From Escherichia coli O127:H6 str. E2348/69 (GTDB lineage Bacteria > Pseudomonadota > Gammaproteobacteria > Enterobacterales > Enterobacteriaceae): a DNA stretch of 64,000 nt. How positions within the stretch are numbered: the first letter of the stretch is position 1; every line of letters begins with the position of its first letter. A program made the translations under genes and the position numbers. Of the stretch, positions 15,754-16,167 are shown one piece after another. The notes beneath the pieces are model-generated. The model was not told the DNA's origin. It saw only the letters and a list, made by a program, of their open reading frames with translations, and did no database searches. The DNA lies in NCBI RefSeq assembly GCF_000026545.1, contig NC_011601.1; one strand, 5' to 3'.

Positions 15754-15926
15754 TTTTATCTCTCATTTCGCATAGATGAAATTTATGAATTGAATGAAAA
15801 GAGTATTCATTCTTCATATCAAACACAGTGCATGTGTTGCACATTATCCCAGGAACGTTGGAGGCCTAATTTAAATGAGGTGCAAAAAAAACAACAGAGG
15901 ACTAAACCGTGGCTTTTGCAATACAA

Positions 15927-15944
15927 TTCTTACGCCTGTAGGAT
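15927..15944. promoter_or_regulatory. EvgA-box-like inverted repeat in the emrK/evgA divergent region
   Basis: TTCTTACGCCTGTAGGAT resembles the EvgA 18-bp consensus TTCYTACA-NN-TGTARGAA. Confidence 0.55.
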
Positions 15945-16167
15945 TAGTGAGAAAACTTATAGTGCTCATTTGAAACTATAAATCATCGGTATCATCCCTG
16001 ATTTTATTGTTGACATTTTATTTATGCCGACTATTTATATGGTATACTTGTCGAATTATCTTAAAGGAAGCTCAAATTTTCTTATTTTTTTGAGAAAATG
16101 AGATGATGCCTTATGTCTGTATTACTACAGGGAGAAGGGAAATGCTTCATTGCAAAGGGAATAATCT

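Follow-up and report, generated by a model that had tools for sequence, protein, structure and literature searches.

A conserved EvgA box in the divergent emrK/evgA spacer of Escherichia coli is the probable operator of the emrKY efflux pump operon

The 18-bp inverted repeat at positions 15927-15944 of the 64-kb window (the whole stretch of E. coli E2348/69 DNA analysed here) is very probably the EvgA operator of the emrKY promoter, through which expression of the EmrKY-TolC pump is activated. According to PMC8174306 and PMC9496106, which cite Kato 2000, EvgA binds the emrKY promoter region directly. By the position computed here, the box lies upstream of an operon whose dependence on EvgS/EvgA has been reported (PMC5706723, PMC6393483, PMC8174306), including with a PemrK reporter in the first two of these studies. 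Mild acid and alkali metals are the signals to which EvgS responds, aerobically, by phosphorylating EvgA (PMC8174306, PMC9496106). Under mildly acidic, aerobic, alkali-metal-rich conditions, EvgS would thus phosphorylate EvgA, and a phospho-EvgA dimer (NarL/FixJ-type, with a LuxR/GerE HTH) would bind the inverted half-sites TTCTTACG and TGTAGGAT; the bound protein would activate sigma-70 RNA polymerase at a weak minus-strand promoter about 75 bp downstream, with the EmrKY-TolC efflux pump, as described in these papers, as the output. Binding of an EvgA dimer to the repeat at 15927-15944 is strongly suggested by the present analysis; we also infer a sigma-70 promoter with its -10 element at 15868-15873 and a start near 15861, together with the manner in which RNA polymerase is contacted. 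The EvgA control of emrKY put forward in the original prediction was borne out by a leave-one-out matrix score, conservation across lineages and a promoter geometry shared with other EvgA targets, in agreement with the four studies named above.

The box is located in the 414-bp spacer between the divergent emrKY and evgL-evgAS operons. RefSeq gene layout agrees with the earlier placement of the repeat between divergent emrKY and evgAS, and the genes and boxes in this part of the window are as follows.

13052-14590, minus strand: emrY, MFS permease (RefSeq annotation and ORF calls)
14590-15753, minus strand: emrK, which opens the regulated operon and encodes the periplasmic adaptor of the EmrKY-TolC pump (RefSeq and ORF calls)
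15754-16167: emrK/evgA spacer
15927-15944, strandless: EvgA box TTCTTACGCCTGTAGGAT (sequence, consensus match and matrix score)
16142-16171, plus strand: evgL, a 9-aa leader ORF, MLHCKGNNL (K-12 annotation b4781, alignment and PMC11210196)
16168-16782, plus strand: evgA, response regulator with Response_reg and GerE/LuxR HTH domains (RefSeq)
16787-20380, plus strand: evgS, hybrid sensor kinase (RefSeq and ORF calls)
downstream of evgS, minus strand: yfdE-yfdV-oxc-frc, then yfdX (RefSeq)
25918-25935, strandless: perfect EvgA box upstream of frc (yfdW) (pattern and matrix)
26909-26926 and 26947-26964, strandless: two EvgA boxes in the yfdX/ypdI spacer (pattern and matrix)
downstream, plus strand: ypdI (RefSeq)

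A 1.1-kb query taken around the box was 100% identical to the chromosome of enteropathogenic E. coli E2348/69, and 5399 of the 5426 complete E. coli genomes carry it. The cognate LuxR/GerE HTH regulator is encoded in the genome, with a domain search of EvgA returning Response_reg (1.5e-27) and GerE (2.8e-22), and the evgL stop codon overlaps the evgA ATG. A 63-codon ORF at 15790-15981 that overlaps the EvgA box was treated as spurious because it had no Pfam match, and a search of the spacer for structured RNA was negative in Rfam at E<=1. Left of emrY, the window contains a csc cluster for sucrose utilisation and remnants of prophage (torI, ead/Ea22-like), and in the E2348/69 annotation dsdA is frameshifted and dsdX is a fragment (window 11620-12944 and about 11384-11602).

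Read towards emrK, the box is ATCCTACA-GG-CGTAAGAA. It stands at 15927..15944, where an inverted repeat resembling the EvgA consensus had been predicted, and differs from the consensus TTCYTACANNTGTARGAA by two mismatches (G for A at position 8 and T for A at position 18), agreeing with TTCYTACA-N2-TGTARGAA at 14 of the 16 specified positions. The box is a weak self-complementary palindrome that fits the EvgA consensus rather than its own reverse complement; the two mismatches and this poor self-palindrome count against the site. An inverted-repeat search seeded with 6 nt missed the box because its two half-sites diverge from each other, and this null result is therefore not evidence against the site.

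The consensus TTCYTACA-NN-TGTARGAA was re-derived here from pattern matches in the window and in K-12. At up to 3 mismatches the pattern gave four matches in the 64-kb window versus 0.60 expected (4 being reached in 0 of 100 shuffles), all of them upstream of EvgA-regulon operons. EvgA-bound inverted repeats have been placed upstream of yfdWUVE and in the yfdX/ypdI spacer (PMC3720670), and in K-12 the same pattern identified sites upstream of safA, ydeP and yegR. With a leave-one-out position matrix, trained on the six other EvgA boxes only and excluding the emrK site, the emrK box scored 18.6 bits, ranking third among 63,983 window positions, and the top match outside EvgA-target promoter regions in the window reached 12.5 bits.

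A chance resemblance in AT-rich intergenic DNA, with EvgA acting elsewhere in the spacer, could be argued from the two mismatches, from the 33% GC of the spacer and from a second, weaker look-alike at 16079 in the evgA leader (TTCTTATTTTTTTGAGAA, 4 mismatches). The matrix rank speaks against it, and so do first-order-Markov simulations of the 414-bp spacer, of which just 10 in 20,000 contained a site with up to 2 mismatches. No second position within the spacer came within 3 mismatches of the consensus, and the look-alike at 16079 was itself rejected as a chance match because a 1-bp insertion in K-12 destroys its half-site spacing. The match of the box to the EvgA consensus was thereby confirmed as far beyond chance, and coincidence is next to impossible as an explanation.

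Conservation of the box was followed within and beyond E. coli. A 48-mer around the box occurs in 5397 of the 5426 complete E. coli genomes, and the box was identical in five E. coli alleles, including K-12, where it occupies 2483513-2483530, and the most divergent allele retrieved (AST85), with flanks that vary on both sides. Two more diverged lineages carry the box at the homologous place, although much of the spacer in the second is otherwise unalignable.

L005: a divergent ‘E. coli’ with EvgS at 91% protein identity; box TTCTTACACCTGTAGGAA, perfect consensus
L006: a 590-kb contig labelled Yersinia vastinensis, with EmrK at 83% and EvgS at 82%; box TTCTTACACGTGTAGGCA, 1 mismatch

In the alignments, AATACAATTCTTAC.C.TGTAGG was invariant across the E. 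coli alleles, L005 and L006, and the changes in the latter two fell in the unspecified spacer N, at outer positions, or turned G8 into A, i.e. toward the consensus. This pattern of change is the one that would be expected of a site selected for EvgA binding, and the retention of the box, with its shift toward the consensus while the flanks diverge, is a further argument against chance.

Conservation extends beyond the box on both sides, which indicates that more than the minimal 18-bp site is constrained. On the emrK side it runs 13 bp past the box (TTTTGnAATACAA), and on the evgA side the box is adjoined by a degenerate third half-site at 15946-15953, which reads AGTGAGAA here and AGTAAGAA in K-12-type alleles (the reverse complement of the latter being TTCTTACT), with A[GA]T[GA]AGA[AT] kept in all lineages. 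These extensions could be taken to mean that the conserved block is the operator of some other regulator, such as a LuxR/NarL-family or silencing nucleoid protein, with the likeness to an EvgA box being secondary. This is very improbable given that the variation in L005 and L006 falls exactly at positions where the consensus is tolerant, including the G8 to A change toward the EvgA consensus, that the extra conserved sequence is explained by a layout common to EvgA targets (see below), and that EcoCyc lists no regulator common to emrKY and ydeP besides EvgA (PMC8174306). Further along the spacer, between the EvgA box and the evgA promoters, GAAACTATAA (15971-15980) is invariant in all aligned lineages, L006 included, and holds -10-like hexamers on both strands, TATAAA on the plus and TATAGT on the minus strand.

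The layout that accompanies an EvgA operator was examined by anchoring six promoters (emrK, frc, yfdX, safA, ydeP and yegR) on the box and reading each toward its gene. The comparison segments were window 25828-25917 (frc) and 26819-26908 (yfdX), L003 4982-5071 (safA) and 7641-7730 (ydeP), and L004 8324-8413 (yegR). All six shared CA at offsets 9-10, nnTCYK at 24-29, T at 31 and a TAnnnT starting at 52-54. On the emrK side, where the start codon of emrK lies 182.5 bp downstream of the box centre, these and neighbouring elements are the following.

15917-15918, minus strand: the invariant CA at offsets 9-10 past the box, part of the conserved block TTGTATTnCAAAA
15898-15903, minus strand: proximal element AGTCCT (nnTCYK), 23 nt after the box and at the same offset in 6/6 promoters
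15868-15873, minus strand: putative emrK -10 element TAAATT, at the TAnnnT position shared with the six EvgA promoters
15860-15861, minus strand: putative emrK transcription start, by analogy with the ydeP leader
15828-15842, minus strand: small terminator-like hairpin GTGCA-ACACA-TGCAC with a T-rich tail, in the predicted emrK 5' UTR

The proximal element was AGTCCT in emrK and safA, AGTCTT in ydeP, AATCCT in yegR and TCTCTG in frc and yfdX. The diverged lineages had AATCTT (L005) and TGTCTT (L006) at offsets 24-29, with the TC kept in both, and TAnnnT was present as TAAATT at offset 54 in L005 and as TAGAAT at offset 53 in L006. The spacing between box, nnTCYK and -10 was therefore kept even in a lineage whose intervening sequence has diverged. 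A 6-column block as conserved was obtained in none of 5000 random circular-shift controls, a figure that overstates the significance since frc resembles yfdX and safA resembles ydeP, so that the six promoters are not independent. The members of each of these pairs are alike beyond the shared elements, which suggests promoter duplication. The scan for terminator-like hairpins found 1 versus 0.1 expected, and the hairpin at 15828-15842 is not conserved in L006.

The ydeP leader has been given as 178 nt (PMC11210196), and its 5' end falls at offset 66, just past the ydeP TAATTT. By analogy, emrK transcription would start near 15861, corresponding to about 2483447 in K-12, and the box centre would lie at about -74.5, a geometry that rests on one literature value for ydeP, which possibly does not represent a mapped TSS. 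With a start at 15861, the proximal element would span about -42 to -37. A class II geometry, with the box centre at -41.5 to -44.5 and TTTAGT (15901-15906) as the -10 element, was considered first and rejected because TTTAGT is absent from safA, frc and yfdX and is not kept in L006, and because the TAnnnT at offset 52-54 occurs in all six promoters and both diverged lineages and fits the ydeP leader. The possibility that nnTCYK is a third EvgA half-site was also discarded, with the half-site matrix scoring below 4 bits there in every promoter; a BvgA-like array of sites is hence not supported.

It is tentatively proposed, with the doubt outweighing the confidence, that EvgA-dependent promoters share a rigid layout in three parts: the box, then after exactly 23 nt the nnTCYK element, placed directly before the -35 position, and a -10 element that starts 52-54 nt beyond the box. 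This rigid spacing from the box to nnTCYK and the -10 is possibly the sole unreported element of the present analysis. If the layout is indeed undescribed, it would point to a second fixed contact, either by a non-canonical EvgA protomer or by RNA polymerase alpha/sigma, or alternatively to an origin of these promoters by duplication of a single ancestral cassette.

On the opposite side of the box, the evgA leaders used in PMC11210196 begin at -124 (an RNA probe) and -114 from the ATG, separate sigma-70 and sigma-S start sites being mentioned there, and a strong RpoS-holoenzyme SELEX peak has been found at emrK/evgA (PMC5493296). The corresponding elements in the window are listed below.

16010-16037, plus strand: upstream evgA promoter, TTGACA (16010-16015), 16-nt spacer and TATTTA (16032-16037), with a start near 16044 (-124)
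16040-16054, plus strand: downstream evgA promoter, extended -10 TGgTATACT (16040-16048), with a start near 16054 (-114)
16066-68, 16131-33, 16138-40 and 16158-60, plus strand: CsrA GGA motifs in the evgL/evgA leader

From its sequence, the TTGACA/TATTTA pair would be the promoter of the -124 start. In L006, this upstream promoter is kept as TTGATA-N16-TATTTA and the downstream segment (TATACT and start) is deleted. An imperfect inverted repeat of 16 nt at 15977-15992/16024-16039 (81% complementary) brackets the evgA -35 TTGACA, and could be a regulator site or a chance occurrence in AT-rich DNA.

The original prediction had also raised the possibility of autoregulation. The rival reading considered here is that the box also, or instead, autoregulates evgL-evgAS as a bidirectional operator of both divergent operons. 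BvgA, the closest characterised EvgA homolog, is autoregulatory, and this was counted in favour of the idea, as were four distant loci (Hafnia, Klebsiella, an Enterobacter MAG and Buttiauxella) in each of which the highest-scoring matrix match, at 11-15 bits, is situated upstream of the evgA homolog. No divergent target exists in Buttiauxella, where the neighbouring gene on that side is a co-directional SDR gene, and IS1-captured plasmid copies of the E. coli locus retain the box and evgA without emrK. Autoregulation is nevertheless unlikely in E. coli. The evgA starts near 16044 and 16054 lie 108.5 and 118.5 bp downstream of the box centre, and the CA / nnTCYK / TAnnnT layout was looked for on the evgA side of the box and not found, so that this side is without activator-type spacing. 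The claim is moreover contradicted by the literature: EvgS levels were constant across activating and non-activating conditions (PMC8174306), Eguchi 2003 is cited in the same paper for evgAS not being autoregulated, and in Shigella within macrophages emrKY was strongly induced in an EvgA-dependent manner with no significant change in evgA (PMC6393483). One of the evgA promoters has been assigned to the sigma-S type and counted among the constitutive RpoS targets (PMC11210196, PMC5493296), and control of evgA has been reported to be post-transcriptional, by CsrA and translational coupling to evgL (PMC11210196). Across the wider family autoregulation is conceivable, given where the best matrix hits of the four distant loci fall. 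The distant EvgA/KvgA-type matrix hits are at L007 2565, L008 203, L009 2913 and L011 2696, and the EvgA-box-like sites of Klebsiella and Buttiauxella are identical (TTCCTACAGCTGTCATCC).

The GC content was 33.1% for the spacer, 40.7% for emrY-evgS (GC3 37-42%) and 47.7% and 50.8% for the flanks. The low GC that had been remarked on in this region is therefore real for both spacer (33.1%) and genes, but the spacer value is what promoter regions here usually show: GC was 30-34% in the window's other promoter spacers, and the low GC of the emrK/evgA spacer is for this reason uninformative on origin. The horizontal acquisition of the cluster that had been read from it remains plausible from the gene-level departure in GC, to which the AT-richness of the spacer adds nothing, and the gene-level deviation would be consistent with a foreign origin of emrY-evgS. 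In a non-exhaustive peptide-pattern scan, the close orthologs recovered were confined to E. coli-type genomes and a single Yersinia vastinensis contig, with 66-71% relatives in Klebsiella, Hafnia, Buttiauxella and Enterobacter; this apparently patchy distribution would also be consistent with a foreign origin. The contig in question (L006, NZ_CACVAF010000001.1, Y. vastinensis IP38594) encodes emrK, evgA and evgS at 83%, 94% and 82% protein identity to E. coli, respectively, and its presence in a Yersinia-labelled genome reflects either inter-family transfer or mislabelling.

An IS1-flanked fragment of the locus was also observed on 18 genuine E. coli plasmids (57-121 kb, mostly conjugative IncF); 22 plasmid-collection records matched, of which 4, at 1.4-4.9 Mb evidently chromosomes and the only ones covering the whole query, were left out. 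The fragment, exemplified by L088 (NZ_CP053722.1) 3263-7833, which is homologous to the window from 15836 onward, starts inside the emrK 5' region and includes an intact EvgA box, both evgA promoters, evgL and evgA, followed by an evgS truncated at its 3' end (2154 of 3594 nt).

That EvgA controls emrKY has been known since 2000, and the value of the present check is one of validation, in that a reading made from sequence alone had placed a real operator to the base. Two side claims were corrected, evgAS autoregulation being contradicted by the literature and the case for foreign origin residing in the gene-level GC of 41% and not in the spacer. For the acid-resistance/efflux regulon, the shared promoter spacing, the predicted emrK start and the IS1-mobilised evgA-evgS' on IncF plasmids may be of modest use.

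Among known systems, the closest comparison is with the operators of the EvgA regulon itself (ydeP, safA(b1500)-ydeO, yegR, yfdX, frc/yfdWUVE and emrKY), which have the same consensus and the same 2-bp half-site spacing. Masuda and Church reportedly described in 2003 an EvgA motif upstream of directly EvgA-induced operons, emrKY included, along with gel shifts, and we take the emrK box to belong to that published motif set. Like the other operators, the emrK box lies upstream of an EvgA-induced operon and at the same distances from the downstream promoter elements. It is among the weaker matches of the regulon, with 2 mismatches and 18.6 bits versus 23-26 bits for frc and yfdX_b, and its spacer is a divergent one, which it shares with the operon of the regulator itself.

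A second comparison is with the BvgA operators of Bordetella, which consist of inverted TTTCCTA-type heptads upstream of the fha and bvg promoters; BvgA promoters combine a primary site with low-affinity sites that act cooperatively and extend to the -35, and bvgAS regulates its own expression. As with the EvgA box, these are upstream inverted repeats with a similar half-site core, TTCYTA. The regulators are homologous, the similarity of EvgAS to BvgAS being stated in PMC9496106 and PMC10295115. Unlike in BvgA promoters, the proximal element of emrK does not score as an EvgA half-site, and autoregulation is reported to be absent for evgAS in E. coli. Divergent spacers between a regulator and an efflux pump, of the two-component or TetR type, likewise support divergent transcription from one spacer. 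In contrast to pump loci with a shared operator, the emrK box appears to serve the pump side only, the evgA side having its own constitutive sigma-70 and sigma-S promoters and CsrA control via evgL. Nothing in kind departs from the EvgA-box family, and the emrK box is hence an instance of already known regulation.
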